From Paraspadella gotoi (lineage: Eukaryota > Animalia > Chaetognatha): a stretch of DNA of 47,956 bases. Of this stretch, positions 1,531-47,956 are shown in pieces. The notes under the pieces were generated by a model. The model was not told where the DNA came from. It searched no databases and saw only the letters and a list, made by a program, of their open reading frames with translations. The translations under genes and the position numbers were made by a program. Every line of letters begins with the position of its first letter. Within the stretch, counting starts at the first letter, position 1. The stretch spans positions 5,998,495 through 6,046,450 of the forward strand of contig CM119263.1 of assembly GCA_051294375.1 (NCBI GenBank), given 5' to 3'.

Positions 1531-1563
1531 TATCTGAATCGCCCTGTCGAAACAAATCTAAAA

Positions 1564-2557: not shown

Positions 2558-2604
2558 AAGGCTGAAGTCAGTTTTTTCCTCTCTCTCTCTCTCTTCTCTC
2601 TCTC

Positions 2605-2653
<49 letters not shown>

Positions 2654-2986
2654 TTGAAATTTAAATAATTTAATTCCAACAAAAAATTTGAGAAATAAAA
2701 TTTCAAACTTTAAATCTAGACGGTTTGCAGTTTTGTTATTGATATTTTTTCTCAATAATAACTATAAATCCTTGTTAAATATAAAATTTAACTCATGTTA
2801 GAACATGGCGACAAAAACCAAAAATTTATTCAATTTTCACGTTATATGTTTTGAATTTGTTTCGTAGAATTTCCATATTACATTTATTTTGCCATAAAAA
2901 AAATAAACGGATTCTTACAAGTTTGTTGTGTCAGTTCGGTCTATCGGTCGGCCATTTTTGTCGGCCGGTCGGTCTTAAACTCTCAC

Positions 2987-3653
2987 CAATAGAAGGGTCA
3001 TTGCCATTGCTCCATCTTCGTTCAACTGATCACCGACGCGACATTGTGATCCAAATCAGACACCAAAAGTCTTCGATTGTGTTGGGAAGAGGCATCTGGG
3101 TTACTATGTAGGCATCCTGGGAGGAGAGCGAGCGAGTGTTTGAGAGAGAGGGAGAGGAGGGGGAAAAGAGAGAATATCGGGATGAGAGAGAGCGAGTCTG
3201 TGAGAGAGAGGGAGAGGAGAGGGATAAAGGAAGAATATCGGAGGAGAAAGAGTGAGTGGGAGAGGGAGAGGGAGAAGAAGGGGAGAAAAACATCAGTAAA
3301 CTTACTTTTTATGATAACCGTTGACAAAGACGCGTTGATGTAGTTTCCTTTCCCTTCCTCGACAGAAAGTGAGAAGGTAGGGTCTGAACGGTCAGAAGGC
3401 AAAATGCCCTCAAATCGGTCTTTCCTGTTGAAGGCGAAAGATGACATCAAAAAAGACAAAAGATAAACAACAACAACGACAACAACAACCTCTATTTGAT
3501 CGTCTCCGTTCCGTCGTGGAATTCAATATCACTGTGCACAGGTGAGACTTTGATTGAGAATCTCAAACCTCTCATCATCACTGTGGGGCGCCCGTTCCGT
3601 TCGTTCCTTTCTTTCACCCAACGGCTTCATGATGTTGAAGTGGGCCGGCGCCA
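2987..3653 (-). CDS. Upstream exons of the receptor PTP D2 domain (inverted relative to downstream exons, indel-rich)
   Basis: Minus-strand peptides FNRKDRFEGILPSDRS..GKGNYINAS (KNRY-like and YINAS motifs) and DAYIVTQMPLPNTIEDFWCLIW/DHNVASVIS (YIxTQxPL..T..DFW motif). Confidence 0.8.
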
Positions 3654-7481: not shown

Positions 7482-10400
7482 GCCCGGCCACAACAACAAC
7501 AACGAAAACAACAACTAATGGTGATTGCTGCTTGGCAATCAATTGTAGTCAAACCAATTGTAGTCAAACCTGAAAAAAAACATTTCAACGAAGGTACAAA
7601 AAAAAAACTCAAAAACTCAAAAATAAAACAGAAAAACCAAATTTCCTCTGTAACTCAGAAAATCTCAAATTTCTTTTTTCTGCCCCCTGTAATTTCATTG
7701 CTTGCCGATTTTTGTCACTACTTACAAGTAAAGATTTAGGTAGCAATTTTTGCTTGATGTACTTTGGTCACGTGTTAAGATTTAGGGAACAATTGATTCT
7801 TTCCTGCTCTTTATTTCATTTTTTCTCCAAACGGAAAACAGACTTTTTGTGATACAAAACGATTTTTTTTTCAAACTTAAATCATTCCTTTCACAAAAAG
7901 ATGATGATGATGATGATTATTATTCTTTCCAAAGGTCGCGGCTCTGGAAACTCTGTAAAGCAGAATAGATAATTTTTTTTAAATCTCTTTTTTTGAGATA
8001 CTATTTTTGTATGCATTTACATTGAAAAGCGAATTTTCATACGAACTTTTAATAGTTAACTGATTGATGTTGTTTTGTTTAATTTTTGATTCTTGGTCGA
8101 TTAATACAATAGAATTGTAACGATGTTAACTCTTGTTTTTATTTATTAAACAATGATATTTATAAAAAAAAACCGAACGTTATTAAATCTATGAGAATGG
8201 TTTTAAGTACATTCAGGTTTCCTTAAAACCTATTTAAAATAGTAAAATACAATTTTCCGATATAATGGACAGCGGCTGACTTCTAGACATACTCAACGAA
8301 AGTGTTGTCAAAAAATATATATATTAAAAATGTAGGTTTACCGTTACGCAGTCCTAATGAATAAAGATATATAAATAATGATATTGATAATGATATATAA
8401 TATAATATTATATAGGATAATGATATATGAATTATGATATAATAACGCAGTCCTAAATTGAATAATAATAGTTACGACAGCGACGTCAGTGTTTAAAACA
8501 AATATGTTGGTTGTACCAATTTCATAAAATTCAGCTCCTTGTATCTTGATGCTCTTACGGAGTACAATATAGTATTCCCCGATCTAATACATACAATTGA
8601 TTAATTGAAATAATATACCACTTCATTGAAGGGGAAGCCAGGTACTCTGGGAGTGAATAAACAAGACTGTGAGAGAGTTTTGATTGAAAGTTTGCAGGGA
8701 CCTGCCATGTCATTATCTTGTAAGAGTGATGGAGGCCTTAAACCACCAGAGCCTGTCCAAAGTCAGGGCAAGATAGCTTATTTATTAAAGAATGGATAAT
8801 TTTTAAATTGGTTGTACCAATTTCATGTAAAATAGAATTTAAAAATTGAAAAACCAAATATCAAAAGACAGTTTAACTGAAAAAAAAACATAAGCAGTTT
8901 TTGTTATTAATAAAAAAAAAATATTAATCAGTTAAGTTCTAATTAAAAAAAAATATTATTATCATCATTATTTTTTGTTTTAAACGATTTGTGCCCTTTG
9001 TTTAAATTAGTTGTCATGTTTCCGCCCGCCATCGACAGATGAACGATCAAAGGAACAACGACTTCGCGCCGGATCCATTCATCCAAATTATCCAGATGAT
9101 TTTTTTTCTGTCTCTCTCTATTTCCTTCCGTCACGATTTTGTTTTTAACAATAAAAATTGATTTGACTTCGATTGTTTACTCTATTTACGAAGATGGACC
9201 CCAAAATATTCGACTTAAAAAGTCCCAGCTTCTGTATTGGAACTTGTAAACTTGAGTCAAAGATCGAAATTCAAATTAAAACATTCGACAGAAAAACAAT
9301 TTGAAGTGACCGAGAAGACAGGGAGTCGCCATGCCTCTTTAAGTGTGTGCATTTTCCCACACTTAGTGTACCCAGTGGGTCTGGGAAATTATTATGTCAG
9401 TTGTCTTGATTCCATAACTTCTGATCCAGCGGTTGACTTAACCGGGTTAATTTACCGGCTATGGACTGGGTTAGAACGCGGAACATTGGGGTTGGTGCAT
9501 TAGCCCAGAGCACTGTGATGGAAGGAATAACCATATCCAACGGCAATGACGTTAACCATGAAACCATGAACCATGAAACCTTCGATGACTCAGACCGAGA
9601 TCCCGACGAAAACCCTTACCCAGACGCAGAGCTCTACTCAGACCTTAACCCTTAACCCTGATCTCTTCATTTATTTGTCGCTATAAGATTGCTTCTACTG
9701 CTAAAATATTTTTGGATCTCCAAACTTTGTATTCGATAATCTTAGTTAATTAATTTTAGTTGACATATTCTTTGTTTTAATTATGAAATTAATTATAAAA
9801 GATAATAAGATTAAAGATTTTTGTAAAGAAGTTTTGAGATGAAATCTTCCTTTTCTTTCTTTTCTTTTTGACTAAAAAAGAAAATAAAAAAAGAGGCTTA
9901 ATTCCGCCAAGAATAAAAAAGAAATTTCTGGAATAAAGTTTGAGTTGATTTCGGTTGCACGAAAAACTCTCATTGAATTAGAACAAAAGTTTTCCCGCTT
10001 TTGTCCTCTAACTCTTGAGTTTTGAGACGTAATAATCTGAAATTTATTACTTCCAACTTTGAAAGTCAGCTTTTCGAATAAATAAAAATAAAACATTTAA
10101 AGAACCAATTATTTTAGCTTTTCTTTGAATTTATTATTTTCAAGTTAAATATAACAATGAATAATGAAAACTAATGGTTTAATTATTTAAATCATTATTT
10201 AAACAAACGTACGTAGTTTTTGAAGAATGTCCTGCAAGATAATGAGAGAAGTAGAAGAGAGAAATTTTTTTCTTTTCTATTCTCAGTGGATTTTATCGAT
10301 TTTTCGGCCACGAAGATTGTTAAACGTTTTCAAAGCCCTTATTAGCTCAATAGGAGTTTGTTCCCAAGGAAAAAATTATAATATTTTGTAAATATAACCA

Positions 10401-12098: not shown

Positions 12099-12545
12099 TA
12101 TTCTCTTCTCTCTCTCTCTCTCTCTTCTTCTTTCCTCTCTCTCTCTCTCTCTCTCTTTCTCTCCTCTTCCTCTCTACCAATCAGTAATCAAAGTAATCTA
12201 TTGTTTTCAGATTTCGAACCACAACAACACACAACAACAAATCTCTCGCTTCTTCGTCTCAACATTTTTCGTCAGAAAAAAAATGCTTTGACGAACAAAA
12301 CAAGTTGAGAAAAACTTTAATTAATTTAAAATTATTTATTATTTTTTTAAAAAAACAAAACGAACAAACCAATATAAGAAAAAAATCTCACGATACTTGC
12401 CGTCAGAAAAAAAAAACAAAAAAAAAATTTAATCTCTAACAAAACAAAAAGAAAAACAAACAAATATTTCTTTTGTTTTCGCTGGAATCTCTTCGTAAGT
12501 CGTTATCGTCGTCCTCATTGTCGTTGTCACCAGGACTCCAGAAGG

Positions 12546-15500: not shown

Positions 15501-18500
15501 ACCCGTAAACTCTCACGGATCACTTAAAGCGTGAGTACATCAGGGAGGAGATTTTTAAATCTAAAACTTTTTAGAAAGTCATATTGATTGAAAAATGGTT
15601 TATTTATATTACAGTCACGAATCGGCGATGGCAAGACGAGAGCGACCTCTCAGTACCAGTAGTACTTTGGATACAGCAGAAGGTAATAAATGTTAATTAT
15701 TTATCATTTAGTTTATTAGTTTATAGCGCTGCTTGATTTCGACTAATTAGTAGTTTAATTTCTAACTTTTCCTTTTTTTTTTACTAATTTAGCTTCAGGT
15801 TATGTATTACTATGTTTCCTAATAAATGTTTCAATTCTAATTATTTAAATACTGTAAGCGACCGTCCTGGGACTAAAAAGACTATATAACCTCGTTTGTT
15901 TTGGGTAAAACTAGATGCAATCATAAAAATTGTATCCTGACTGTTGAATATACAATCAAAAGGTGTTAGCACCCCTGGGTTCACCCGCAATTCACTCCGC
16001 GTGACAGGAGTGATCCGCCTTACGATTCGTGGACGAAACATCCCTCTCTACATCCCGACTGAGCACATCCCCGATTACGCCAATTGCGACATCAATCCAG
16101 CGCCGAAGGAACAACTCAAACTTGATTGGGTCTATGGTGAGTCTAGCTTTCTAGTCTTAATTAAATATTCTACCCATTTTCGAAATTACCGAAAAAAAAG
16201 TATTTATCAATTTCACATCATTTATTGCATCATGATTTATCATCGTGCAACACAAAACGCTACCATCTAAAATCCATAAAATGGCAAAGAAAAACTCATT
16301 TTCTCTATTCGTTCATTAAACAAAACAAAAAAAAAATTGATCTTTCCTGTCAAAATTTGAGATTTGAATCTCAAACTTTTTTGACTTTTTCTTTTTCTTC
16401 TTTTTCGCTCGATTTTCGCGATCGGAATTTTCGGTTCCCGCGTTTTTCTCGTTGCGATGAATAAAAAAATTATTCTGTATTACTGACCCGATTGTGTGGT
16501 TAAGTACAGTAAGAACCGCGAATTGCGTTCAGAGTCGACCTCGAGATAGAATACCGGCGGAACCTTTATGTAATTTCAGGCAAAGTCTATGATTCCGCCT
16601 GATGTCGACGAGGAAAGCAATTCGAGGCGGACAGGAAACCCGCGTGACAAGCATTGACGTTTATGACAAGCATTGACGTTTGAGACAAGCATTGATGTCC
16701 CTGACGTCGATGACAAGTCTTGACATTTATGACATAAAAATAACATTTATGACACGACGAGAACGTAGGGGGGCACAATTGTAAAAAAAAAAACAAAAAA
16801 AAACACAAAACAGGTTATCACCTCTTTTGGACTAAAAAGAGGGGAATGCAATTTAGAGCTTGTAATTTCTTTTAAATAAATATTCTTTCATATAAATAAT
16901 CTATTAAAATTGGAAAACTAAAAAAGGAAGACGAATGGAATCGAAGAGTTATTCGGTGGCAGATTTAGAATCCAAATCTACGAAAGAAGTCGGTGTCAAT
17001 TGTTGCCTGAAAGAATTAAGGAATTTTATAGCTTAAGGTTTAATCTGGCGACTTCATTGACATGACATGACATCGCCGACTGGTTTTTAATCCATTTACC
17101 TCGAGCAGATTTAACCCAACATTAAAGTTTTGAACTCTTCATAGTCAACCCACCCTGAACCATCTTCATCGATTTCCTGTAAAAAGATTCATTTTATTAA
17201 CGGTTAATACGGGTATACCGACTGACCGACCAACTCACTGACCCGGATCATTTCATCCACGTCACGTTCCGTCATTTCTTCGTCCAGTTTCATCAGGATT
17301 TCTTTGATAACTGAAGTGTTGATTTCCCCTAAAATCATCATATATTGGTTTAGTTTTACAACAGTTGGCACTCAACACGCCTCAGCCTTTCTTTCCCTTC
17401 ATCAGAAACTTCTAAAGCCCAGATACTTTCTCTTGGGGAGCTCGCTCAGACTAACTCAATCCAGGACTTAATCTAATTAAACTAGGCTAAGATCCTTTCT
17501 CTACCCCTACGTTAGTTCAACCAGACCATGGTCTCTTCCTTACCCCACTTACTCAATCGAAATCCCTTACCTACCCTACCTCACTTACCTTTATTCTCTC
17601 TGTCCAAAATCCTGAAGGCTTCCCTCACTTCCGATTCCTCGGCCGCTTCCTTCGTCTTCGTCTTCATCAACTCGAGAAATTCTTCCAAGTCGACAGATCC
17701 ACTTCCATCGGCGTCCACGATGTCGATGCAGTCTTGGAGTTGATAGGCCTGTTGCGAGATATGGATGATCAGACCCTGCATTTTTTATCACTGGGGAGGC
17801 AAGGACCAAGCACCAGTGCATTCTCTATACCTTGAGGTCGTGACCAAGCATTCTCATGACCGTTCCCAATTCATCGGTGGAGATTTCTCCCGATCCGTCT
17901 TCGTCAAACTTCTTAAAAGCTTCTTTGAAGTCGGCCACCTGCGAAGATCGAAGGCGGGAGGATAGAGAATGAGACAAAGAAAAAGAGCGAGAGACAGTCG
18001 GAAAGAGAGAGAGACAGAGTCGAACATCCCGCGAAAATTCGCGGCCGAAAAAAATAATCTGCGAGAGCGAAATTTATCGGATGAAAAGATAAATTAAAAA
18101 AGCGCGGGGGATGAACGACTTTTGTTGCTCATTTGTTCTCGAGTTATTTGGCAAAAAAAGTGTCAAAACAAGTTTGATGCTACTAAATGTTTCTAAAAAG
18201 TAAAAAAATGTTGAAAGATTTCAACCTTTTTCGTTCTGAAACAAAAAAAAAAAAAAGATTTAATGTTACTTTTTTTGTATTAATGCTTTTGAAATATTAT
18301 TAATCTTGCACTTAAGATTTTCTTTAATTGAAATTGAGTTTGAAATCGAAAATTTTAATTTTATTTGTCAAGAACACTTAACACTAAACTTTTAACATCG
18401 ATTGCCGACCGGACATCAGATCCCGCCGCAACCGTTAGATGTATTTTCTTGTCTTCGACGAAAAAATTAGTGACAAAAAAAAAATCGATCGGTGATTGAA

Positions 18501-21500
18501 AAAGTGAAGTCATATTTCGTTATTAGCATCGAATGAAGAAAGAATATTGTTTTATAATATAATTTTAGTTAGTTTTTTTTTAATTGGTTTCGTTCAGACT
18601 ATAACTCTAATTAAGCTACGAATTTAATTAATTAAATGAGTAAATCGGATAAACGTGTTAACTATTTTCATAACGTAATAAAGTTCATAAAATTATGAAT
18701 ATATATTTTTTTCTCTCACCTGTTCGTCGGTCAACTCATAATCTACTTCCTCCTCTTCGTAATCTTCATATTCCACTGACATTATTCCTTTTTTTTAATA
18801 TTTAAAATTTTTGTCAAATTTTTTTTTTTCGTTTAATTTTCTCAGCCTCGATTTTTCGGTTATGAGCGAAAGTCACCGGTTGAGGTTTTGGCGATCGGTT
18901 TCAGGGTTGACCGCTTCGACGGCGACGACGATTGGCCGACTGCTTGAGCCTTTGCCCGACACACCCCGACCAGTCCGACCGCCCTCGAAAGGGGTCGGCC
19001 CGAATGGGGGACCGACCGACGGACGGACAGACCGGCCGAGTGACGCTCGACCCGAAGTCGTCTCTCCGAACATCTTTCGCGTCGACTTCGTCGTCGTTTT
19101 AGTCGTCGCGGTTGTCGTCGTCGTGGTTATCGTCGTCGTCGCTCGCTGCCGACGGGTCCGCTAAAAAAATGACCCCAATGAAGATATTTTTCTGCAATTG
19201 AAAGTTGTGGGCATGAGCGATATCTAACGCGTTTTGTGGGCCACATCTGGTATTTGTGGTCCTTTTTTTTTTGTGATTTTTCGTTCGGTCCGGAATTAAT
19301 GGATGGAGTCCATATGAACTTTTATCGCTCACAGTTTTTAGCTCAAAAAGAATCGCTTTTCTTATTTCTTTTTTTCTTTTTCTTTTTTCTCCTTTACCTT
19401 TGTTCCAATTTACCTTTGTTCCCCTTTATCTTTTTCATAATAATATATACAATTAATATAATATATATATAATATATACATATATACGTATATATATACA
19501 TATTTCTTTTTCCCGCTTTTTTTTCTCTTTTCTCCCTTCGCCCTTCCCAACGTTTCTCTCCCCCTCTCCACCCACCTCTAAAAACCCCCTACCATCCTCG
19601 CGGCCCTCCTACAAAGAAAAGTGGGTCATGGGTTCGAATCCGACTCCCGACGCTAAAATCGGCAAACGATCGACAGCGAAAACTAATCGATTTCATTTCC
19701 TTTATCGAATTAGTTCTTGTAATTGTATCTCTTAACTATTTTATTTTTTATACATTTATGACTTTTTTCTTTTCAATTCTTTGTTCTTTCGTTTTTCAAG
19801 TTGCGCTCAGCTGCCGCCAGAGCGAAGTTTAAAGTCAAAATTCTTTATTTTGAAAGACGAAACGATTGATGGGAAAAACTATGATGGAGTAGATGGGAAA
19901 GCGCGATGATTATGATGGATCAGATGATGCTGATGATTATGATGGGGATGATTGTCGATCTCAGGCTTCGAGGGATTGCGATAAGATATTTTACGATTAA
20001 AAATTGCATTTATTTTTTGTTCTTTTTCCCTGCGACGTATTTTTCTGTCAGAAAAATCGATAAAATTAAATAGCGTTACGTACGAAAAAGGTTGCGTAAC
20101 TTGGAAAAGCTTACATTGTGATTAACCCAGGATTTATTCTGTTTATTTACAAACGGGAACACCTCACTCTCAGTTTAATAGTATTACTCATATAGTATTT
20201 CATTATCAAGATTAAAATACAGTTTCAGTATAAAAGTATGTAAAAAAATCTTTAAAATCAGTTGAACAGTTTTTGAGAAAAAAATAAACATTTACTTAAA
20301 TTTAGGTTACCGTGGGCGCGACAGCCGTTCTAATCTTTTTCTTCTTCCAACTGGAGAATTAATTTATCCAATTGCTGGAGTCGTCGTCCTATATAATGTT
20401 GAGGAGCAAATGCAGGTCTTTACTGTACATTATTTTGCTTCACTGTATAGTGTATACCTATCATTTGTACAATGCAAGGGAGACTTTTTTCCCCAGTCAT
20501 GTAATGCTTTTTATCAATTTGATTCTTACGTCACAGAGACATTATCTCGCTCACACCGACGATGTGAAATCCTTAGCAGTTCACCCGGATAAAATCACTA
20601 TCGCCTCAGGCCAAGTTGCTGGTGAGTCTCAACTTATGTCACATTTGCAAAAGCTTTTGTTATTTAATAGAGATTTGATTTATGCAATGGCACTGTGCCT
20701 AATAATTATTTATTTTTTTTTAAATATTTTAACCTTTTTGGAATTTATATAACAGGGATAGGATACAAACATAAAACGAGCGGGAACGAGACTGATCACA
20801 ACTTTAAACTTTTGACTTTCTCAGGACACGACCGAAAAACTGCCCGTCCTCACATTCGCGTCTGGGACTCGGTATCGCTCAACACTCTCAAAGTAGGTCT
20901 AACGGGATTCGGGTTAAGACAGTCGATTATAATGAATTTAATTTCAGTCCTTTTAAATTGTATAGGACCAAGAATACAGACCAAAAAGCTAATACAGGTT
21001 GCAGCAAATTTCTGTCATTAACAATTACGAAAAAGTAACAATCTCAGTAAAAATATTAAAACTCGTCTCGTTAGTGATTCGTCCAAGTTAAAATTTTGTT
21101 AGAAATTTCTTTGCTCATTTGTTTTGTAATCTCGTTTCTCCACCAGGTGGTCGGCATCTCGGGCGAATTCACGAACGCCGTCTCTTGTTTGTCATTCAGC
21201 GTCGCTGACGGAGGAAAGCATCTGGCGGCCATCGATGAAAGCAATGATCACGTTCTCAGCCTGTGGGAATGGGAGAAGGGAGAACACGGAAAGAAGATTC
21301 ATGGTGAGAGAGTCCGTTGTGACTTGTGACTTCAAGGAAGAAGGACCTAAACTATGAAATAATGTTTAATGAAATTTCTTATATTTAGGTTAAATGATAA
21401 ATACCCACTTTTCGATATCAACTTAATTCGGCCTTTCTCTTTCTTGTTTAGAGACTAAAAGCTCCGCCGACCCAGTTCTCGCCGTCGAATTTCATCCCAC

Positions 21501-24500
21501 GGAGCGAAACATTCTTGTCTCATGCGGAAAATACCATCTCAGCTTTTGGACGCTCGAGGGTGGGCTGCTCACTAAGAAACAAGGTCTTTTCGAACGGTTT
21601 GACAAACCCAAATACGTCTTGTGTCTCAGGTAAGATTTTATAGGTTAACGGTTAATAATTAGCGATATTAATTGATATTGCTATCGATGCTATTTTGCGG
21701 TTTTGTTCAGTTTTACTCCAGAGGGGGACGTCGTGACAGGAGACTCGAACGGCAACGTCCTCTTCTGGTCGCGAAGCAAACAAAAGGTCACCAGTGCGAT
21801 CACCGCTGCTCACGACGGTGGAATCTTTTCCTTGGGTGAGTTTTGATGGAAAGTCGTTTTAATCAAATTAACTAAGTTTAGTTTTGCATTAGCTTTTAAT
21901 AAGAACCGAATTTATATCTAATATTCTGTAAAGCAAACGTTTTATAATTTAAAGTTCTGTTAAGCATATACATATCATATGTTTTATTCGTATAAATTCA
22001 TGGTATTATCATTTTGATAAAATTTAAAATCTTGATTTGTTGAGTTATACCATAGCCATTTAAAAACTAATATATCATATTTTAAGTTCTCGAATTTGGT
22101 TCTTATATGGGATTAGTCTAGTCCATTTCTAAAACTATCTATTTTAATAATACCTTTAAACTCTTTGTTGCAGTGTACATAAGTAAAGGTATTTTTGATC
22201 CAGGCCATACTGAAACGTTTAACATTTTTATAAAACATTAACACGAAAACTTAGAATATAGTTCATCTGGGACAAAACGAATAATATTTTTATAAACTAA
22301 ATTTTGACTACAAATGAGCTGCTTAATCAAAATACTTATAAAGGTTAAAGTATTTGATTTTTGTCCAAGATGTTATTTTGGGGGTTTTCGTTTTTATATT
22401 TTATATTTTATATAACGAAGCTTTCAGGGATCGCGCAAACTGGGTCAATGAGAAATTGTATATTTTTTATCGGTCTAATTTGGTATGGAGGAAAAACTAT
22501 TATATTCAAAATTATTAAATTTTATATTTCTATTTAATACTATTTTGATGTTAAGATTTCGATAATAAATACTTGAGGTACTATTATAATTATTAGTTTT
22601 TGATTTCGTTTTTAATACCTTTATCCGATTTTTGTAATTTCCCTTGAACCTCTGTGCTATTCTTTTTCTCTTTCTTTTCCCCCACAACTCTCCTATTGTC
22701 TTCTCTCGTTCCTTCCCCCCCCCCCCGATTCTTCTCTTTCACTACCTCTTTCCCCTAAAACCCCCTTCCCTTTCCCTCCCTACCCCTCTCTCCCTTTCCT
22801 ACCTCCTACCGAAAGTCCAAAAGACGGACGGGACCGTCATCACGGGCGGAGGCAAAGATCGTCGCCTGGTCCAATGGCATTTTGAGACGTCCTCGGGCCT
22901 TTACGAGAAGATTGCCGAGGCTGAACTGGATGAAGCCTTTGGTCCGGCGAGGTGCTTGGCGATGGGGAAAGGCAACACCGTCGTCGTTGGAACGACCAAG
23001 AACTGCGTCCTTCAAGGAGGACTGGATATTGGATTCTCTCCGATCGTCAGAGGTCACGTGGATGAACTATGGGGTCTCGCTGTGTCTCCAAAGCAGCACC
23101 AGTTCGTCTCCGCCGCACATGACAAGCAGGTCAGTCGCTTGGTGATATGTGATGTGAATTGTTTAATCGCCTGGTGATATTTGATGTGAATTGGTGATTT
23201 GCGTTGAGAGTTGCTGAATAGCTTATACAATCTGAATTGGTGAGTTGTCTTGTGATATTAAATGTGAATTCGTCAGTCAGCTGGTAACATGCAATGTAAA
23301 TGAACGAATCACTTACTGATATGCAATGTGATTAGGTTTGTCGCCTGGTGAAATGTAACGTGAATTTGTGAACCCTTTATCATTCCTCCCCCTTCCCGGT
23401 CCAGGTTAACATGTGGGACACGATGAGTCATTCCGTCATTTGGAGCGCTGAAGTACCTGACCCAGCGCAGTCGGCCGCCTTTCATCCATCGGGCGACAAA
23501 ATCGCTGTCGGCCTTACCAGGTTTGTTGTCGTTGTTGTTATTCATTCGCCAAGTTCAATTAGCTTTCTCCTTTTTAATTATATCATTGTTACTGTTAGTT
23601 ATATTTCCCCTCACCCTTTATTGCCCCCCACCCTTGATTGCCCACCACCTTTGATTGCCCCTAACCTTGGTTGCTCCTCACCCTGCAGCGGGAAATGGGT
23701 GGTAATCGATGCGAACACGAGGGAAATCGTTTTCCGTCAAATGGACGGAAATGAACAACACGACGCGATTGCCTTTTCACCCGACGGGAAATTCATCGCT
23801 GTTGGGAGTCATGATAATTACATTTACGTTCACGAGGTGAATACTGATAGTTACATTTGCATTCATTTGGTGAATATTTATAATTAAATTGAAATTTATG
23901 GGATGAACATTGATAGTTACTTTCACGAGGTTAAACTCGATTTTTGGTTTTACATTCATGAGGTGAAACTTAAGTTACATTTACGTTTATAAGATGAATA
24001 TGAATATGAATCTCGATTGAAATTAGACAACTATGTCCTACAATAATGTACTTTTAAGTTTTATAGGATTTGTTTCTAATTGGCCGTTTTTACACGTAAT
24101 ATACATTTTGATTTTACTTTTTCAAATATTTATATCTCGTCCCTTACAGATGATATTTCTGCTCCTTTACAGATGAATGATGATGGAACGACTTTCTCCC
24201 GAGTGGGGCGATGCTCGGGTCACTCCTCCTTTGTCACTCATCTTGACTGGAGCGAAAACAGCGAATACATACGCTCCAACTCGGGAGATCTTGAGGTAGG
24301 TCTGTCGGTCATTTTATTTCATTGATCTTTCTGTTGTTATGTAATGACGAATTTAACGAGTTTCTGCCCTCCCTGTGGATAGGCGTTGTTCTGGAATCCC
24401 GCCACCTGTAAGCAAGTGACTCACGCTGCCTCCTTGCGCGATGTCCCTTGGGCGACGGACACCTGCACCCTCAGCTATGGCACCTGTGGCATCTGGCAGG

Positions 24501-25077
24501 AAGGTGCCGATGGCACTGACGTCAATGGATGCTGTAGAAGTTCAGGAAAAAAACTGTTGGCCGGTGAGTGGCGTGGTTGATTGGTTCAGTAAGTGGCGGA
24601 GTAGGGGCGGGAAATAAATGAAAATACTGTTACAACCGTGATTAAAATTGGTTAATCTAAAATAAAGACGTATGGTGGACTAAAACCCACCAACCGTTCA
24701 TCAGCGGCCATTGGTGCCGGAGGCAAGTCATTCGCCTCCCAACCCAAAGGTCCGGGGTTCTAGCCCGGTGGTCGTCTGGCAGTTTAGAGGGACGGGGCGC
24801 TTAACCCGCCTGTAACATGGTGTTACAGCCTGATCCGAAGCTCAGGGACTGCTTATATTGAACGGTTCTATCACTAACTCATAACAATAATTACTGTCTC
24901 TTCAGACGTTAGGAGTAGTTCAAATTAAAACTCAGTTTAATTTTATTTCAGCGGGTGACGATTTTGGCAAAGTTTCTCTCTTCTCTTTTCCCTGCAACCG
25001 ACTTCGATCTGAGTCTAGATTATACGGAGGTCATAGTTCTCATGTCACAAACCTGCGCTTCCTCTTTGATGATTCGC

Positions 25078-25218: not shown

Positions 25219-26163
25219 GTCCCTACAGTGTCGGCTACACTGTCTGCTTCGATCTTCCCATTAGTATCCAGGGCGTCTTCACTACTCGCGGTGCTGATGT
25301 CGGCAAATGTAGATTGGCCATGTCGGCAAAAGTCAAATGATCATTTCTCCAGCTTTTTGTAGTCGTTACTGTTTTTCGTAGTGAATCTGATCTTCGTAGT
25401 TGTCGTTTTCGTAGTGATAACTGTTCTTGCTCACCAGTTTTTATTCACTTCTGTCACGAGCGACTTCGCCAGTTGGTATCACTTCTATCCTTAGTACACA
25501 TTTTACGTAAACGTCAAACGTAGTTAATATATTTGTTATATTTCAAAAACGCTATGATTTTTGAGATCTCTGTGATAATGTAACATTATCCATAGTATTT
25601 TTATCAAAACAAAATGGTATGCTGGGTTTTCGAAGCGACGAAATGCCATAACTTAGATAGATATAAATTTTTGTTTCCATGACTTGGAATTTTTGTCACG
25701 TGCATCGATCATTTTACACTCACATTTTATTAATTAATTAATAAATCCTTTTTTTCGTTTTGCCTCCTCGAGTATTAAAACGAAAGCATCATTACCTTTT
25801 CTCTTGCTCCTCCGTGCTTTTTTTTTCTGATGGAAATAGAAACACTTATTTCTTTTCATTTTTAGCTTTTTAAATAAGTATTTCGATACGAATCTTGACA
25901 ATAGCTAATTTCATTAGTCACTTTAAATTTGTCTAGTCAGCCCTGGGGAGCTCTTGTCCCGTTGGTCAAGCTAGGTTTTGAAAATTATATCTATGTTTAG
26001 GGTAATTGTGAAGATCTTTCTTTGATAGCGGAGGATCTTTTTACGGTTTTTACGGTTCTAGATTGATTAAAGATTTTACAAATCAGAAATTCTTTACGGT
26101 TTAAACTCGAAATAGTATGAAATTAGTTGTACCAATTTCATAAAATAAATTTTAAGAGGACAT

Positions 26164-26404
26164 TGTGATGGACTAAAATCCACCAACCGTTCATCAGCGG
26201 CCATTGGTGCCGGAGGCAAGTCATTCGCCTCCCAACCCAAAGGTCCGATGTTCTAGCCCGGTGGTCGCCTAGCAGTTAAGAGGAACGGTGCGCTTAACTC
26301 GCCACACTCGTAACACACGGTGTTACAACCTGATCCGAAACTAATAGACTGTTTATATTGAACGGTTCTGTCACTAACACAACAATAATTATACTGTCTC
26401 TTCA
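26164..26404 (+). mobile_element. Solo LTR (copy 2)
   Basis: TGTGATGG...TCTCTTCA (canonical TG..CA), TSD ACAT (26160-26163, 26405-26408). The twister part is more degenerate. Confidence 0.88.
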
Positions 26405-28285: not shown

Positions 28286-32842
<4,557 letters not shown>

Positions 32843-33549: not shown

Positions 33550-33823
33550 TGAAGAGACAGTAATTATTGATTTTATTATAAATATTATTATTAATTATTA
33601 TTGATTATATATATTATATAGACAGTAATTATTGATTTTGATTATTGATTATGATATTGATCAGGCTGTAACACCGTGTTACAGGCGGGTTAAGCGCCCC
33701 GTCCCTCTTAACTGCCAGACGACCACCGGCTAGAACCCGCGGACCTTTGGGTGGGGAGGCGAATGACTTGCCTCCGGCACCAGTGGTCGCTGATGAACGG
33801 TTGGTGGATTTTAGTCCACCATA
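33550..33823 (-). mobile_element. Solo LTR (copy 3) with AT-rich expansion in its 3' part
   Basis: Reverse complement of the consensus. TSD AGAC (33546-33549, 33824-33827). The twister is intact only up to the P4 5' strand. Confidence 0.88.
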
Positions 33824-39720: not shown

Positions 39721-41742
39721 TTATAATTATATATCAAAATTTCGGCACTTTTTTTCAAAGAAGCCCCCTTGCTGCGGCTCCTGAAGCAGCGGACTCAAAC
39801 ACCCGGCAAGGGGGCTTCGATGATTGAAAAGGCCCAAATTTCATATTGGGTTCCGCATACAATCCGTGTCTTTTAGACAACGAAATCTGAACTTCAATAA
39901 TTACCATCTTTCTTCATCTCATTGGTTAGAATGAAGCTTTCTTCATTTAAAAAAACGGTAGGCTATAGTTATCTTCTTATGACGTAGTACTTTCCAGGTA
40001 AATTTCTATGAGTTAAAACAAGGTATAAGACATGTTTTCTTCAATGATTGTCAATCAAATCTTAATTTTAGAAATAAGTATGATTGAATTTTTATGGTAA
40101 AGATAACTTTTAAAGATTGAATTCCTCATAAGAATCTTCACATCTTTTACTTACACAAAACTATTCATCAGGACGCCACATTATCTCATACAATGTTTTT
40201 CCCCTCATACCCTTTCCCTGATTCTTTTTCTTCATCTCTTTTCTACTCTTTATTTGTATTTTCTTTCCCTCTTTCCTCCCCTACTTCTCACACCGTCAAT
40301 TACATTTTTTGGCCCTACCTTTTTTGCCACTCTTCCACTTTCCTCACCTTTTTTCTCTTCTTCATTCTTTCCCTTTCTTTTCCCTCTTTTTCTGTCTATT
40401 TTCCTTCTTCCTACCTTTTATTTGTCTTCACTATTTTTTTCGCCATTTACCTTCTTTTTTGCCATTTGCCCCCTCTTTCATTCTCTCCGACCTCCTTTTC
40501 TTGTTCTCCCTTTCGTTTTCCTATCACTACATTTACATTGAGCAATAAAAAATCTTTCTTATGCGGTATAAAAAAAGAAATTAACGGTAATAGAGGATTT
40601 TATTTCAATTTTGGTTGGCCGAGCAGATTTAATAAATCGACAGATTTTGCGGAAAATTTTTTCCGCAAAATCTGTCGATTCTGAGAAAAAAACAAGTCCT
40701 GACGCTTTCCATTAGGGTTAAAAGGATGCCGGTTTTTTTTGTTTTATATAAGTCAGTATGTACCTCATCCTTAAAACTAATAAAATGAGTTAAAAAATAC
40801 TCTCTTTATCTAAAATAAATGCAAGTACACAAAAAGTCACAAAATTAAAAGTGTCTTTAAAAAAATTTGTGGCATAAACGAAAAAAGTTTTTTTTTGATA
40901 ATTTTGTAGGGTGTTAAAAGCTTATTTAATAGGCTATTTTTCTGTTAATTTCAACCAATTTTTTTTATTTTTTGTTTAAACAAAATTTATGATAAAGACT
41001 GAAAACTGCAACTTTTTGACTTATTACTTTAAAAAATAATTCATAGGCAAACTATAAATGATTTAAGCAAATTAAATTTACACAGGGGTAAAGAAGTAAG
41101 GAAGAACGGATTTCCAAAGTAAAAAATTTTTCTCAACTTTCCTTGGCATTCAAATCATAGATAAGTCGTAAGTAAAATGGACAAATGGACATAATTTTTT
41201 TTCCTAAAAGTTGCCAAAATGGTACTCTTTTATCATTAGAAACGGGTGGAGATGTTTTCTAACCAATCCTTCGTTCGGCCCAATTTGTGTTGTGGCACAA
41301 AGTTAAATCAACATTGTTAATAGTAACAAAAAAAAAAGAAAAACTGAACCAATAGGTGGAGAACGAGTCCGTATTTTTTTTTCCTAAAATGCAACGTTAG
41401 AATTTTGATATGCGAGAACCAATTGATTGATTATGATTTGACTTGGCAAATGAGCGGAAGAGAAGTTAGCCTTAAAAATCGTCTTTCATTTTAAAACTTT
41501 TAAAACTTTTTTTTCAATCTTTTTGTCTCACTTTTTAAATATTTTTTAAAGAACTTATAGATAAAAAAGTATCAATGTTAATATATTATGAAAGCTCTTG
41601 AAGATTTGAAGAGAATGATATATTTAAGAATATTGTAACATAAAAATAAGCCTAACCAGCTTTAATGTAATCAAGGTAATCAAAATTAAAATATTGAAAT
41701 CCTAAAATATATTTTTTTAAATAAATAACCTATTTAAGCTAT

Positions 41743-41976
41743 TATGGTGGACTAAAATCCACCAACCGTTCATCAGCGGCCATTGGTGCCGGAGGCAAGT
41801 CATTCGCCTCCCAACCCAAAGGTCCGGGGTTCTAGCCCGGTGGTCGCCTAGCAGTTTAGAGGGACGGGGCGCTTAACCCGCCTGTAACTCTGTGTTACAG
41901 CCTGATCCGAAGCTCAGGGACTGCTTATATTGAATGGTTCTGTCATTAACATATATCAATAATCATTGTCTCTTCA
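41743..41976 (+). mobile_element. Solo LTR (copy 4), best preserved: tRNA-like 41776-41847, twister 41850-41925
   Basis: TATGGTGG...TCTCTTCA with TSD CTAT (41739-41742, 41977-41980). Acceptor GCGGCCA/TGGTCGC; P5 AGCAGTT/GACTGCT. Confidence 0.9.
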
Positions 41977-42170
41977 CTATAATGATTGAACCAATTATTA
42001 TTTATATAAGTATCATAATAAATAATGAAAAAAACTAAATTAAAATAGCTAATAATAATTTAATAATTATTCCAAACATGCTTTTTTGCAATCTTTAATT
42101 TAATGGTTATCTTAATTTTGTTTACCTTTATTGATTTAAAGCTGGATTGACTAATTTTAATTTTAACATG

Positions 42171-42864
42171 GTAATTATCCTTTCTTTTTCGTTGTTTGAG
42201 GAGAGATTTACAAAGTTTGATTTTTATTTGCAACGAATTTTATTTTAAAAGAGCAGACATGTTTCGGCTCACAATACGAGCCTTCATCAGCGCATATGAG
42301 TTATGAACTTGATACAAGTTTTTAGTTAAAGTAAAAGAGAGAGAGAGAGAGAGAGAGGGTTAAAGGTTTCCAACAAAGAATTGAGTAAGGACAGTGATCA
42401 GTGGTGAGGACAGATTTTTGGAAGTGGCTAGTTTTGATAAGTTTTTGAAAAGAAGTGAAAATTGGTGAGAGAGACAGAGAGAGAGAGAGAGAGACAAAAT
42501 AAATAAATAATTACATTTGAGCAATGTACAACATAGATAAAGATAATGGAAACTGTTTAATAACAAATTGAATAAATTAATTTTTGAAATTGAAATTGAA
42601 AGTTGAAAATTGAAATTGAGAAGTTGAAAATTAGAGAGATAGATAAGTAAAGATTGTAGTGAAATATAAGAATTAAGAAAGAGCTCAAAATGAGCTGGGC
42701 CCCCCCCCGGTCTCTCTCTCTCTCTCTCTCTTTTACTTTAACTAAAAACTTGTATCAAGTTCATAACTCATATGCGCTGATGAAGGCTCGTATTGTGACC
42801 GAAACATACATTGTCTGCTTCTTTTAATAATGAAAATGGCGTTGCAAAATAAAATCAAACTTTG
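42171..42864 (-). mobile_element. Penelope-like retroelement remnant with inverted pseudo-LTRs
   Basis: ~150-bp inverted arms (42211-42358 and 42711-42864), each with a hammerhead core. Flanking 14-bp direct repeat TTAATTTTAACATG (42157-42170, 42865-42878). Confidence 0.65.
42253..42293 (-). ncRNA. Minimal type I hammerhead ribozyme motif
   Basis: Minus strand GCG-CTGATGA-A-GGCTC gtattgt GAGCC-GAAA-CATG-TC^TGC, with palindromic ACATGT at stem III. A degenerate copy lies on + at 42774-42818. Confidence 0.7.
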
Positions 42865-44417
42865 TTAATTTTAACATGATATTTTAATATTTAGATCGCA
42901 AAATATGACAAACGTTTTAAAAAAGTCATAAATTTTTTGTAACCAACTCGTTAGGTTTCAGTATGTAAAAGTAAAATAAGAGTTATTATTTCAATAATAT
43001 ACAAATATAGTTGTTTTTTCTAGTTTTTACACTGATACTGTTTTTGATTTTGTCCATACTGTTTTTGGTATTAATAAATTAAATAAAATAAAAAAATATA
43101 TATATATATATAAATATACAATATACAAAGCTGAATGTTATGAAATGGGTAGGATCAATTAGCCATTGAAGATGATAATATCGTGGGCAGATCCGACATT
43201 GTTTGCTCAAACTTGTTATTTTTGTATCTAACTAATCTGCTTCATGTATCCCTGCCTAACGCCTATACTATATGTAATTATATATTCTATGCATTTCAAT
43301 CTTTACTATCATTCCTGAGTTTTCAATAACTTTTACCTTATCTATTTTCATTTATTCAGTTTTAAATCTTATCTTAAATCTTGTCTGGAAGCTCATCCCA
43401 TGTTAAATCTTAAATATTATCTCATCCTTTAAATCTTACCGGACCCAGAGTATCCCGCTTCAGTTCTTCAAGGTGAAGGTCAAAAGCGAAGGGAGCGGAG
43501 CCCAGACCAACGAGGAAGAAAAACGCAACAATCGCACGACGTCGACGATCAGAGAAGAGCAGTTGAAAATCAGCCTGTCGGCGAATATAATATAAAGTAT
43601 AAAAAAATTCAAAGTATAATAATTTCCCCAGTAAAAGTATTATTATATGAAATTGGTACAACCAATATAAAAATATATATATATTTATATATGATAATAA
43701 TCATTTACCAACAAGATTTTGGGGTGGGACCGACGAACCGACAAAGTGAATTATAAAGTTGGAATCTGCTGATAAGCAGATCCATTTACAAAGTTTATAA
43801 TCGTTTGATTTCAAAAATGCACACATCATATAAAACTAAGGAGTTCTGGATCCAACTTTTATAGTAAATGCAGTTTTTATAACTGTAAGAATTTATTGTA
43901 TTCATTTGTAAAGTGACAGTACGTTTGAGACACGTTTTTGCCTAGATTGTATCGTTCAGATTTGGGCGGTTAAATATTTATCACAACAGCACAACGCCTT
44001 GAACTTGCCTTGAATTTTTTAGTTTAATCTCACCCGTTGAGAGTGTAGAAAGGCGAAGCCGTGAAGGGAGGAGACCAAAGAGTGAAAGATAATTACAAAT
44101 AAGAGACTCCAACCAACAAGGCGAAAGTAGAAAGCCTCTGACAATAGGTGCGTCACGGTTATCTGTCAAGAGATGATAAGCAGGCTTGGGTCCTTTGCTT
44201 CGAAAGGTTTTTCATGCTTGTGAATTAATCATACGTAGAGCGAGGATTACCGACAGGGAAAAATAGACTAGAATATAGAGAAATTAAGAAAAAAGAATTT
44301 TTTTTAGCTCTCTAACAACACTAATAATACTAATTACATTTTTACCTTTTACAATTCAATAAATATTACATTACGTATACTACACGTATACTATGTATAA
44401 TACGCAGTACAATATGT

Positions 44418-44542
44418 CATTATGGACTAAAATCAACCGACTGTTCATTCGCGGCCAGTCAAGAGGGAGGGGGCGCTTAATCTGCCTGTAATATGGTGTT
44501 ACGGCCTGATCCGAAGTTCAGGGACTGCTTATATTAAACGGT
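44418..44542 (+). mobile_element. Degenerate LTR copy 5 (tRNA-like domain deleted, twister region retained)
   Basis: ATGGACTAAAATC..GCGGCCA jumps to GTCAAGAGGGAGGGGGCGCTTAATCTGCCTGTAA..GTTACGGCCTGATCCGAAGTTCAGGGACTGCT. Confidence 0.75.
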
Positions 44543-46996
44543 GAGGAACAACAACAACAACACACAACCTCAGTTAAAAGTGACTTTACTAACCTTACCC
44601 TCGATCGCTTGCCCTCTCTCTCTTTATGGTCAACTTTGACCTTGTAAATACTCATTTGTTAGCCTTTTAAACTTTTTGACTGTTATTGTTATTAACCTGT
44701 TAACCTTAATCTGAAAATTGTTGCATCCACAACGGTATTATTATTTACTCCTAACAATTAATCTCTCTTCAATATATTAAATAGTATGATTGATTAAAGA
44801 AGAAAGGTTTAAAAATATATCTAGTAGTAGTGCCTGAATCTAGATTCAGATTTTCAAAAAACTTTCTAAATATGATCAGAACCATATTTAATAGAAATTA
44901 GTTACACAGCAGGTGGATTAAATATGCTCAAAAGGTTAGTAATAAAAATCGAGTGACTCGAATATGCAAATGAGATTAATGCGTCATCGTAAGATTAAAT
45001 ATAAGGCAAAAGAGAGCATAAACAATTTATTAATAATTATTTTTTAAAAAACAATTAATAAATATGTTTTAATTTGTTTTGATAATTTTTTATGAGAATT
45101 CTGTATAATAAAAAATATTTTAAAAAGCTAATTTATCTAACAATATTAACATAATTATTGGCTATAAATATATTTGTATTACTTCTTTTTTTATTCTTTT
45201 TTAATTTTGAAAAAATATTTAGTAAAAATATAGCTTTTTTAATTGGTTCAGGCACTAGAATACAACAATACTTCTGATTCTGAAAATGAATTGGGAAAAA
45301 ATGATTTTTGATACTTCTTTTACTTACTTATTTTAATTAGTTTAGGTTAAAAATGGTTGACACCTATCCTTACAGATATTCTATGCTGACTTTATTCAGC
45401 CAATTTAATATTATAAACATTTTTAATATGGAAAAAGTCATTGACTCTTTTTGACGAAACCTAATTCCTTCTTTTTCTATTTTTGTACCAATCGACTTTG
45501 GCGTCCCATAACTTTCGAACGCTATGTTCGATTTTATCGGGACTTGGACCAATCGATTCATCCTTCAATAAGCTTTATTTTATATCTCTAAGTCTTTGTA
45601 AAATTCATCCATCCAATACGTTTTTTTTTATGTGAAAATGTGGCTACTTTTTTTTGCGCCTTAGTGTACAAAATAATAACAGAGTAGTTCCTTGCAAGCT
45701 TTCAATCAAGACTCATTCACAGTCTCGTTTATTCATTCCTAGAGTATAATTTTGACATAATTATATTTGAAAGTACAAAAAAAATATTTTTTGCCAAATA
45801 TTTTTACTTTTTTTTAAACAGATTTAACAGGAATATGAAATTTTTTTGTAAGCAAATAAGAAGTATAGAGAGAGATTAAGAGAGAGAGAGAGAAACAGAT
45901 TGAGCCAAAATTATAATTTCTGGATATAGGCTTTATAATAGTATAAAAAATAAAAGTTTTAATTTTATAAAACTGACCCTCACCTATAACAAATGAAAGA
46001 TTTACCCTCACTTTTTTATTAACCTCTAAGTGGATCTAAAATTAAAATTTTTAAATAATACTAATTTTTTACTTTCATATCTTATTAGCTCAAATAAAAT
46101 GATAATGCTAACTCTTTTCCTAATGATATAAAAAAACAGCACCAATAAGAAGAAAAAGTTTTTTCACCTTCTTGTTTGCTGACACGCTATATAAAAGTAT
46201 ATTTTTATCCCAGAAGGTATCAACATTTTTATTTTTTTTGCGGGTAAGACAAAGGCCACAGGTTTTTTTTTCCTTTTTTCAACCTTGTTATCTTAATTAA
46301 AGCTAACAGACAAAGATAATTACTACAAAGACGGAGAGAATGATAAAACAACCATAAATTATTCTTACTCTTTAAAATCATTACTTAAGAGTTAATTGAA
46401 GAGAGCGCTGGAAAAGAAAGCATATGAAGAATACTTGCTATTAAAGTATTTTGATATGATTCAAGTAAACAGTACCAAAATGGTTGTGAGCAAAACAAAA
46501 AACTGATTGAACTGGATCTCTCTCTGCCTCAATGGCTTTTTGTCATTGGTTTACTGTCTCACTATTTTTCAAGATTGAGTTACAAGAAACCTTTATTACA
46601 ATAGTATTTTCATATGCTTTTTATTATTAAATATTGTTTTTTTTATCCTATATGCTGATAAAACTATACATACTAGCTTTTTAATTTGATTTTATTATAT
46701 TTATTTAAATTTTTATATAAGATTAATAAGTTTTTAATAAATTAAAGTATTACTGTGAGACGTTAATCTCATTTGCATATTAGAGTAACCCGATTTTTAT
46801 TACGAACCTTTTGGCCTTGTGGAAAAAAATCGTTCTATCTCATATCTCTTATTTTGGTACCAAGGTAATATTCCCAAGGTTTTGAAAAGATATTCCAACC
46901 CTTCCTATAGGAAGCTTGCCAGACTACTAGTAGCTAATCCCTAAACCTATCAGCGCATTTAATAAGTTTAATCTTTTTAATTTTTTTATGGTTATC

Positions 46997-47367
46997 AGTC
47001 TGTTGCGTCTCTTCAGTGAATTGTTGTTGTTGGTGGAAAGTGCGTCACCAAGTTGAGGCATGTCGCCTGATGTGTTTGATGGCGGAAAGTGCATCGCCAG
47101 GTTGAGGCATGTCGCCTGAAAGTGTTGTTGTCGCTGTTGTGTTTGGAAGTCGGGCTCACCAATGAAGAGACAGTGATTATTATTATGTGTTAGTGACAGA
47201 ATCGTTCAATATAAGCAGTTCCTGAGCTTCGATCAGCGCAATAAGCGCCCCGTTCCTCTTAACTGCCAGGCGACCACCGGGCTAGAACCTTTGGGTTGGG
47301 AGGCGAATTACTTGCCTCCGGCACCAACGGCCGCTGATGAATGGTTGGTGGATTTTAGTCCATCATA
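46997..47367 (-). mobile_element. LTR copy 6 (47367-47163) plus PBS (47161-47149) and ~150 bp internal region
   Basis: Reverse complement of 47555-47944, with internal deletions (twister P3 missing). Confidence 0.85.
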
Positions 47368-47554
47368 ATATTAATTTTTCTTCTATGGAGGACAGCTAAT
47401 AGTTGATATGACCGATGACTCTTTATCTCCATTTCTCTCTTTCTCTCTTAACAATTACTATTTGTTAGTTTACTAACTCGTTTTCACATTATAACAAATT
47501 TTTATTATCATAAACCTTATCTCCGTATCCAAGGTCGTCGTAAAAAGCAAAAGG

Positions 47555-47956
47555 TATGGTGGACTAAAATCCACCAACCATTCATCAGCGGCTATTGGTG
47601 CCGGAGGCAAGTCATTCGCCTCCCAACCCAAAGGTCCGGGGTTTTAGCCTGGTGGCCGTCTAGAGGGACGGAGCGCTTAACCCGCCTGTAACATGGTGTT
47701 ACAGACTGATCCGAAGCTCAGGGACTGCTTATATTGAACGGTTCTGTCACTAACACATAATAATAATCACTGTCTCTTCATTGGTGAGCCCGACTTCCGA
47801 ACACAACAGCGACAACAACACTTTCAGGCGACATGCCTCAACCTGGTGATGCACTTTCCGCCAACAACACATCAGGCGACATGCCTCAACTTAGTGACGC
47901 ACTTTCCACCAACAACAAAATTCACTGAAGAGACGCAACAGACTTCTCCCTACGGG
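47555..47956 (+). mobile_element. LTR copy 7 (47555-47780) plus PBS and internal region running to about the window end
   Basis: LTR ends TCTCTTCA, then T-TGGTGAGCCCGAC. The internal region has two ~48-bp tandem repeats (TCAGGCGACATGCCTCAAC..GCACTTTCC). Confidence 0.85.
47782..47794 (+). promoter_or_regulatory. Primer-binding site, tRNA-Trp-like
   Basis: TGGTGAGCCCGAC lies one base after the LTR CA end. It matches 12/13 of TGGTGACCCCGAC, the complement of the metazoan tRNA-Trp 3' end (recalled, not searched). Confidence 0.7.

Follow-up and report, generated by a model that had tools for sequence, protein, structure and literature searches.

A short non-coding LTR element of Paraspadella gotoi with a tRNA-like block and a predicted twister ribozyme in its LTR

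A unit of about 235 bp recurs along a 47,956-bp stretch of Paraspadella gotoi DNA (the window), and it raises two questions: whether it is the LTR of a retrotransposon or a SINE, and what a tRNA-like block followed by a twister-like motif might do within it. The original prediction placed the unit at seven positions, and a BLAST search with 41743-41976 as query recovered all seven at 80-94% identity, but not all of them are whole (Table 1). Near-complete LTRs start at 24671, 26164, 41743 and 47555. The solo copies with foreign DNA on both sides are all bounded by exact target-site duplications (TSDs) of 4 bp (4 out of 4), each with a different sequence, as had been claimed; the chance of this, calculated from the composition of the flanks, is 0.0062 for each copy and 1.4e-9 for all four. 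Note that the whole twister fold is kept in only two of the seven copies in the window (24671 and 41743). The twister core of the 26164 copy is mutated (general-base G and T2 are altered), the 33550 copy on the minus strand has AT-rich sequence in place of L4 onward, i.e. in its 3' middle, so that the fold is broken, and in the 47555 copy an 8-bp deletion takes out the 5' strand of P5. The stretches 46997-47367 and 47555-47944 are two 5' halves in inverted, divergent orientation, 187 bp apart, and the first of them, on the minus strand, breaks off just before the polypurine tract (PPT).

Table 1. Copies and features of the LTR family and of a second repeat family; positions are those of the window.
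Feature	Position	Strand	Remarks
Solo LTR	41743..41976	+	234 bp, TA...CA ends; intact twister fold (one of two such copies)
Left TSD of the 41743 LTR	41739..41742	+	CTAT, same 4 bases as 41977-41980
Right TSD of the 41743 LTR	41977..41980	+	matches left TSD
Solo LTR	24671..24904	+	94% identical; intact twister fold; TSD GACG
Solo LTR	26164..26404	+	87% identical; TG...CA ends; TSD ACAT
Solo LTR	33550..33823	-	both ends present; TSD GTCT
Decayed partial LTR	44418..44545	+	most of the tRNA-like part and 3' end gone; without TSD
5' LTR, PBS and interior	46997..47367	-	LTR 47163-47367, two internal deletions; interior truncated before PPT
5' LTR of element running off the window	47555..47780	+	one T4 run
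PBS	47782..47794	+	13 nt, one T after the LTR
Non-coding interior	47781..47956	+	no frame open over full length
5' terminal hairpin	41746..41763	+	6-bp stem
Long-range helix, 5' arm	41764..41772	+	encloses tRNA-like block and twister; paired in the MFE fold of the 24671 copy
Long-range helix, 3' arm	41931..41939	+	one C>T change in the 41743 copy
Degenerate tRNA-derived block	41776..41847	+	likely Pol III internal promoter (predicted)
A-box-like motif	41784-95	+	imperfect
Anticodon loop	41808-14	+	CCC
B box	41828-37	+
Type-P5 twister fold (predicted)	41850..41925	+
Twister P5	41850-55/41920-25	+
Twister P2	41859,41861-62/41877-79	+	A41860 bulged
Twister general-base G	G41863	+
Twister pseudoknot T1	41865-67/41907-09	+	3 bp
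Twister P1 hexamer	41868-73	+
Predicted twister cut	between U41874 and A41875	+	between LTR positions 132 and 133
Twister pseudoknot T2	41880-81/41912-13	+	2 bp
Twister P3	41882-900	+
Twister P4	41901-05/41914-18	+	5 bp
Second repeat family	8507-8833	+	unit of 301 bp with a ~24-bp direct repeat at its borders; no tRNA block noticed
Second-family fragments	29317-29465, 45667-45746, 43638-43674, 26120-26155, 43119-43151
Same P5-type twister in second family	8714..8775	+	not part of the LTR element; otherwise dissimilar repeat

The window contains no two-LTR copy in full, and contigs of public runs were compared with the stretches 47500-47956 and 41700-42020. Two copies (47163 on the minus strand and 47555) do continue into a PBS, as originally predicted: the LTR is followed by one T, the 13-nt PBS and 164 nt of common interior at 96% identity. 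The PBS is complementary at 12 of 13 bases to the 3' end of honeybee tRNA-Trp as printed in Kojima's Fig. S2, and two internal repeats of ~45 nt can be seen by eye in the interior (47781..47956). Among the 12 joint rows shown (77 more exist), eight, from runs X1 and X2, pass from 47951-47956 through a purine run of 10-13 letters to the LTR start, i.e. a PPT stands next to the 3' LTR; in these other copies the interior reaches the PPT and the LTR start within about 11 bases. One single X1 contig of 264 nt covers the twister 3' half, the LTR end, the PBS, the interior, the PPT and the LTR start. The joints between interior, PPT and LTR give an interior of ~187 bp and an element of ~655 bp with the layout LTR-PBS-interior-PPT-LTR. 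The original prediction had proposed looking for a short, non-coding interior in two-LTR copies, and this is what the contig joints reveal; an autonomous gag-pol element is rejected, as ~187 bp is too short for it.

The ends of the LTR are sharp and the family is large, since many contigs leave into unlike flanks. In comparison with 47500-47956, 125 X1 contigs do so before the LTR start and 188 behind the LTR end, the figures for X2 being 104 and 187, and in comparison with the 41743 copy 127 X1 contigs depart before 41743 and 62 behind 41976. In summed depth the LTR bins exceed the interior bins several-fold; this is no measure of copy number. Taken together, the architecture, the TSDs, the Trp-type PBS, the PPT and the non-coding interior make us practically certain that this is a short non-coding LTR retrotransposon; the original reading as an LTR rather than a SINE is borne out by the PBS, the PPT, the two-LTR joints and the 4-bp TSDs. 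On 41700-42020, the X1 contigs have C>T or G>A at 30 of the 49 variable places, many of them at CpG, a pattern that suggests that the copies decay through methylation. Two contigs of run X10 (organism B) and one of run X11 (a biofilm) also match and are too thin to show spread among species, and in run X9 (presumably an RNA run, contigs only) there was no pile-up of ends, which is uninformative on expression or cleavage.

The terminal hairpin, the two arms of the long-range helix and the tRNA-like domain lie where they had been described. In the tRNA-like block, a 7-bp acceptor stem, a canonical anticodon loop, a variable loop and a B box are spaced as in a tRNA, and the B-box sequence GGTTC is present in the tRNA-derived sequence of the LTR as it is in Helenus. 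The A box has an A-box-like spacing, while the TRGCY and YGG motifs, which in the passages of Kojima's paper are given for most families, are not exactly matched. A tRNA descriptor, written after seeing the sequence, matched one of 10,000 shuffles. However, the block was called neither by ARAGORN nor by Rfam, and its predicted fold is a long extended stem with two hairpins instead of a cloverleaf; a functional tRNA gene is rejected. The block fits a promoter remnant that is likely to be used by Pol III. In the 3' arm of the long-range helix, the letter that differs in the 41743 copy (T41935) is C in 87% of the summed X1 depth. A T4 run on the sense strand is absent from four of the five stretches tested, and the one in the 47555 copy stems from a change that is the minority letter in the runs. 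T4 is also absent from 1,687 out of 3,000 LTR shuffles and 1,072 out of 3,000 interior shuffles, but from only 40 out of 952 background windows, and its absence is weak evidence for read-through.

Behind the tRNA-like block, the original prediction had noted a twister-like motif, and this part of it can be extended to a full P5-type fold with both pseudoknots. We used as consensus the Rfam consensus line together with the helix table in PMC8501958 and the passages available from PMC5408937. The layout is that of type P5 (termini in P5, order P2-L1-P1-UAA-P2-P3-P4), and the conserved residues G41863, A41864, A41875, A41876, U41906, A41910 and A41911 are present, i.e. the catalytic G and A, the UAA and the L4 pattern. 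On the other hand, the comparison with the Rfam twister-P5 model that had been proposed as a check left the LTR copies unmatched: no copy has a twister match in Rfam even at E<=10, and the gathering score of RF02684 is not reached. A P5-type descriptor matches three of the seven LTR copies and the second family, none of 5,000 LTR shuffles and nothing in 30 block-shuffled windows, chance figures that are optimistic because this descriptor and that of the tRNA were both written after seeing the sequence. Most of the family's X1 contigs keep the twister fold intact: the core changes listed for 15,606 contigs (9 further rows are not shown) are four CpG-type transitions at <=14%, and larger ones are located in the P3 loop, at the junction and at P5's outer end.

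The fold departs from the consensus in three respects. The loop-proximal P4 pair that closes L4 is A41905-U41914 in the LTR family and not G-C, a pair that is described as essentially invariant in twister (PMC5408937, in part); P2 has 3 bp with a bulged A; and P1 consists of 2 bp and a 2-nt loop. In addition, a competing hairpin that occupies T1a and T2a has an energy of -29.3 kcal/mol, versus -20.2 for the nested twister core, in which the pseudoknots and P1 are not counted. According to the passages at hand, about 94% of ~2,000 natural type-P1 twisters tested were active, with P1/P2 defects being tolerated, and those of the pseudoknots and of the fourth pair in P4 less so (PMC11662667; these CHiTA data concern type-P1 permutes, not P5), and P1 is dispensable for twister, P1/P2 imperfections being tolerated (PMC11662667; PMC5408937). 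The predicted twister fold is well supported but non-canonical. From sequence, we consider it very probable that the fold originates from a twister, and we would expect that it probably cleaved in the active progenitor. A hammerhead core was searched for and found in none of the LTR copies. A degenerate pattern of the twister subtype picked out one viral and 11 metagenome loci, none of which (0 out of 12) has full P4/T1/P5 pairing by eye, and we regard these as chance matches; in the window the same pattern matched only the second family, so it is too strict for the two intact LTR copies.

The strongest evidence for the predicted twister is the comparison of the LTR with the second repeat family. 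In one hand-aligned sequence pair, 7 of the 21 base pairs are changed on both sides, one is changed on one side and none is broken. Four of the double changes are in P5 and one each in P2, T1 and T2, so that both T1 and T2, which are all Watson-Crick in both families, carry one double change each. Seven double changes without a broken pair, both pseudoknots included, require that the fold was under selection once the families had split. The bulged A in P2 is common to the two families, the pair closing L4 is G-C in the second one, and Rfam Twister-P5 gives a sub-threshold match there at 8725-8767 (25.6 bits vs a gathering score of 37.6). The P1 hexamers of the two families (41868-41873 and 8733-8738) are both self-complementary with the centre swapped from CG to GC, and their duplex energies are -8.3 and -9.1 kcal/mol. 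In dimeric hammerheads, pairing takes place between two copies of the ribozyme. A self-complementary P1 could likewise mean pairing between two copies, or merely a ribozyme that does without P1. In its boldest form, this could be a dimer ribozyme in which the two LTR copies of one transcript pair and are cut together; if true, full-length RNA would be processed and solo-LTR RNA would not. The copy of the second family is slightly longer than one unit, an expected trace of circle copying, and it is possibly a non-LTR retrozyme with a twister in place of a hammerhead.

It is worthwhile to compare the element with Helenus, i.e. with TRIMs whose LTRs are tRNA-like and that have a PBS, a PPT and, in their animal members, 4-bp TSDs (Kojima 2024, PMC10886601). 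In the passages of this source, Helenus is probably mobilised by Gypsy elements and has several origins, and Pol III transcription is not validated for it either. The common features are many: both are short non-coding LTR elements with a PBS and a PPT, the tRNA-like block of the LTR is a non-functional tRNA, the TSD has 4 bp in animals, there are solo LTRs, the PBS is of the Gypsy type and the size is within 311-1263 bp. The TA...CA ends occur in several wasp Helenus families too. By this architectural definition, as far as the source passages give it, the element is Helenus-type, the testable features being present except for the exact A-box motifs. Since Helenus already comprises animal TRIMs with tRNA-derived LTRs and 4-bp TSDs, the combination of an LTR with a tRNA promoter, originally thought to be new in animals with Cassandra as the only TRIM precedent named, is the Helenus/TRIMp3 design (PMC10886601, in part) and its novelty falls. 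The difference lies in the arrangement: the tRNA block is here near the 5' end of the LTR and followed by the twister fold, whereas in Helenus it is usually near the 3' end and followed by a T-run (most animal LTRs, by eye). Neither twister nor self-cleavage is mentioned in the main text of Kojima 2024 (PMC10886601), where 'hammerhead' occurs only in the title of a reference, and no twister was seen by eye in the animal consensus LTRs of its Data S1, the fungal ones being covered by a motif search only.

The same Data S1 contains two gall-wasp elements, Helenus-2_SyJa and Helenus-2_SyUm, whose LTRs have by eye an apparently complete type III hammerhead behind the tRNA block, with a GUC site, a 7-bp stem I, a CUGAUGA core, GAAA and complementary loops 1 and 2; no T-run was seen between the tRNA block and the hammerhead. 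Like these two, our element has the tRNA block in the 5' half of the LTR with a ribozyme-like fold directly behind it and a Trp-type PBS one base from the LTR, and it has the 4-bp TSD in common with Helenus-2_SyJa (Table S1). Unlike them, it has a twister and not a type III hammerhead, and the wasp interior is longer (485 bp). The Trp-type PBS of the wasp pair is common to Gypsy-32_NVi, and the hammerhead is not remarked on in the passages of Kojima's paper (PMC10886601). A 2020 review refers, in the part consulted, to work in preparation on insect elements that carry type III hammerheads (PMC7761336), so the wasp case may be known to the group of that review.

How such an element might be copied can be outlined as follows. 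Pol III would start near position 34 of the 5' LTR and, as no T4 stop is present in the intact copies, would carry on through the 3' LTR. The twister would cut between positions 132 and 133 in each LTR, releasing an RNA of about 421 nt that lacks a repeated R region. Both P5 and the helix 41764-72/41931-39 have one strand at either end of this monomer and could hold the ends together, and a host RtcB-type ligase or the ribozyme would then join them to an RNA circle. With tRNA-Trp as primer, a Gypsy RT could run round the circle, so that two LTRs would be rebuilt without a first strand jump, and the integrase would make the 4-bp TSD. The same circle model has been shown or argued for plant retrozymes in the passages of PMC4918200 and PMC7761336. 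We lean slightly towards the element being an animal LTR retrozyme in this sense, i.e. one with a predicted Pol III transcript, cut in both LTRs, and a Gypsy-mobilised circle of ~421 nt; for the circle route itself our expectation is likewise a little better than even. It is a more doubtful, tentative speculation that there is a whole class of animal LTR retrozymes, in which Pol III-driven TRIMs have more than once swapped the terminator for a ribozyme, a twister here and a type III hammerhead in gall wasps, and make circles of ~420 nt.

The twister might instead serve as a terminator. In such a linear TRIM, it would cut mainly in the 3' LTR, replacing the T-run of Helenus, and there would be no circle: the RNA would extend from about position 34 of the LTR to position 132 of the 3' LTR, with an R region of ~99 nt and ordinary strand transfer. 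This reading is favoured by the place of the fold, as a T-run stands just behind the tRNA in most animal Helenus LTRs (Data S1, by eye) where the twister stands here, by the existence of the competing hairpin, and by the 5' arm of the long-range helix (41764-72), which lies upstream of tRNA +1, so that the ribozyme copies of the 5' and the 3' LTR would fold in different contexts. However, it would need the 5' copy to be off; stems that join the ends are a better explanation of P5 and the long-range helix, and plant LTR retrozymes are described as cutting both LTRs and accumulating circles (PMC4918200; PMC7761336, both in part). We consider a linear route rather unlikely.

Seven double changes without a broken pair between the two families, both pseudoknots included, and a fold that most of the family's contigs keep intact are hard to reconcile with a passenger relic, i.e. 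with an ordinary Helenus-type TRIM that acquired a piece of twister, for example from the second repeat family or from a tRNA-twister SINE, and in which this piece is now non-catalytic or without role. The different ribozyme at the same place in wasp Helenus (by eye) speaks against a relic as well. A relic would agree with the negative Rfam result, the A-U at the conserved P4 pair, the strong alternative hairpin and the donor-like family of the same twister subtype in the same window, yet we find it quite improbable. A tRNA-derived SINE with an internal twister, moved by a LINE or a Penelope-like element, would be in line with the tRNA-like block, the AT-rich 3' part and the high local density (7 copies in 48 kb), and twisters are known in a non-LTR element (PMC8501958, in part). 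The fixed 4-bp TSDs, the sharp 5' and 3' ends, the 33 bp upstream of the tRNA block and the PBS and PPT at the LTR borders all conflict with it, and the PPT-to-LTR joints in the run contigs essentially refute it, so its chance appears negligible.

Returning to the circle route, the element has many features of the plant LTR retrozymes as these appear in the passages of PMC4918200 and PMC7761336: it is non-coding, has a ribozyme (here a predicted one) in each LTR, a PBS and a PPT, a 4-bp TSD, solo LTRs and a presumed Gypsy partner. In the plant elements, and in ours as predicted, cutting of both LTRs leaves no R region. The differences are nevertheless clear in the same passages. The plant elements have a type III hammerhead, and ours has none and a twister fold instead; their PBS is that of tRNA-Met and not Trp-type; their LTRs are ~350 bp and their circles 600-1000 nt, with no tRNA-derived promoter described; and their circles are demonstrated, whereas ours are predicted only. 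Having neither a hammerhead nor a Met PBS, the element does not belong to the plant LTR retrozymes, though it is predicted to function in the same way. With the animal non-LTR retrozymes, in the parts consulted of PMC7761336 and bioRxiv 10.64898/2026.07.22.740005, it has in common an animal host, a small ribozyme and a unit-length RNA (predicted here), but those are tandem repeats with type I hammerheads and no LTR, PBS or PPT, and they are tied to Penelope-like elements. The twister T-variants of Schistosoma Perere-3 (PMC8501958, in part) are likewise twisters of an animal retroelement, and their P3 stem and L4 loop are similar; unlike ours, they have the type-P1 layout, and they stand at the 5' end of a non-LTR element that is autonomous, trimming one end only.

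A July 2026 preprint states, in the passages available, that LTR retrozymes occur mainly in plants and have the type III hammerhead, and that animal retrozymes are non-LTR (bioRxiv 10.64898/2026.07.22.740005). We found no title or abstract on a ribozyme-bearing animal LTR element in the literature searched (subscription journals, Repbase, Dfam and preprint supplements were outside the search), and none in the passages of bioRxiv 10.1101/2022.07.19.500677 and PMC13570524. As far as the literature found goes, no report covers the ribozyme in an animal LTR with a tRNA promoter, and this is the unreported part of the element. The engineered Tornado cassette is a Pol III transcript in which twister-type ribozymes cut both ends and a stem joins the ends for ligation by RtcB. 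If our element cleaves and circularises, it would be a natural counterpart of that synthetic system, with the difference that a single ribozyme, duplicated by the LTRs, would make both cuts. The LTR-retrozyme strategy would then also be known from animals, with a second class of ribozyme and with a defined Pol III promoter, which bears on the question of who transcribes retrozymes. Twister would gain a new role, that of defining both ends of a retroelement RNA, it would become clear how the transcript of a Pol III TRIM is ended when no terminator is present, and there would be an animal source of viroid-like circles. Rfam-based scans miss this twister subtype, and published TRIM libraries may hold further unnoticed ribozymes.

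The window as a whole is animal DNA, and its genes contain introns. At about 12400-23900 (+) there are exons of an EML-type WD-repeat gene; one of these exons is 45-56% identical to six of its seven matches, among which the five with a name are from a sea spider, a brachiopod, a priapulid and two hemichordates; to the remaining match it is 74% identical. The kinase exons at 29200-31400 (+) belong to a gene that we take, from the translation, to be MELK-like. Two minimal hammerhead cores, at 42261-42290 (-) and 42777-42805 (+), lie within an inverted repeat (42206-42356 / 42711-42869), an arrangement known from Penelope-like pseudo-LTRs. Counting this repeat together with the LTR twister and the twister of the second family, both predicted, the 48-kb window would hold three ribozyme-bearing repeat families. 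At its start there is an inverted duplication (1-1432 / 1547-3007, 91%) of a gene with cysteine-rich repeats, which is either a fold-back duplication or an assembly artefact.
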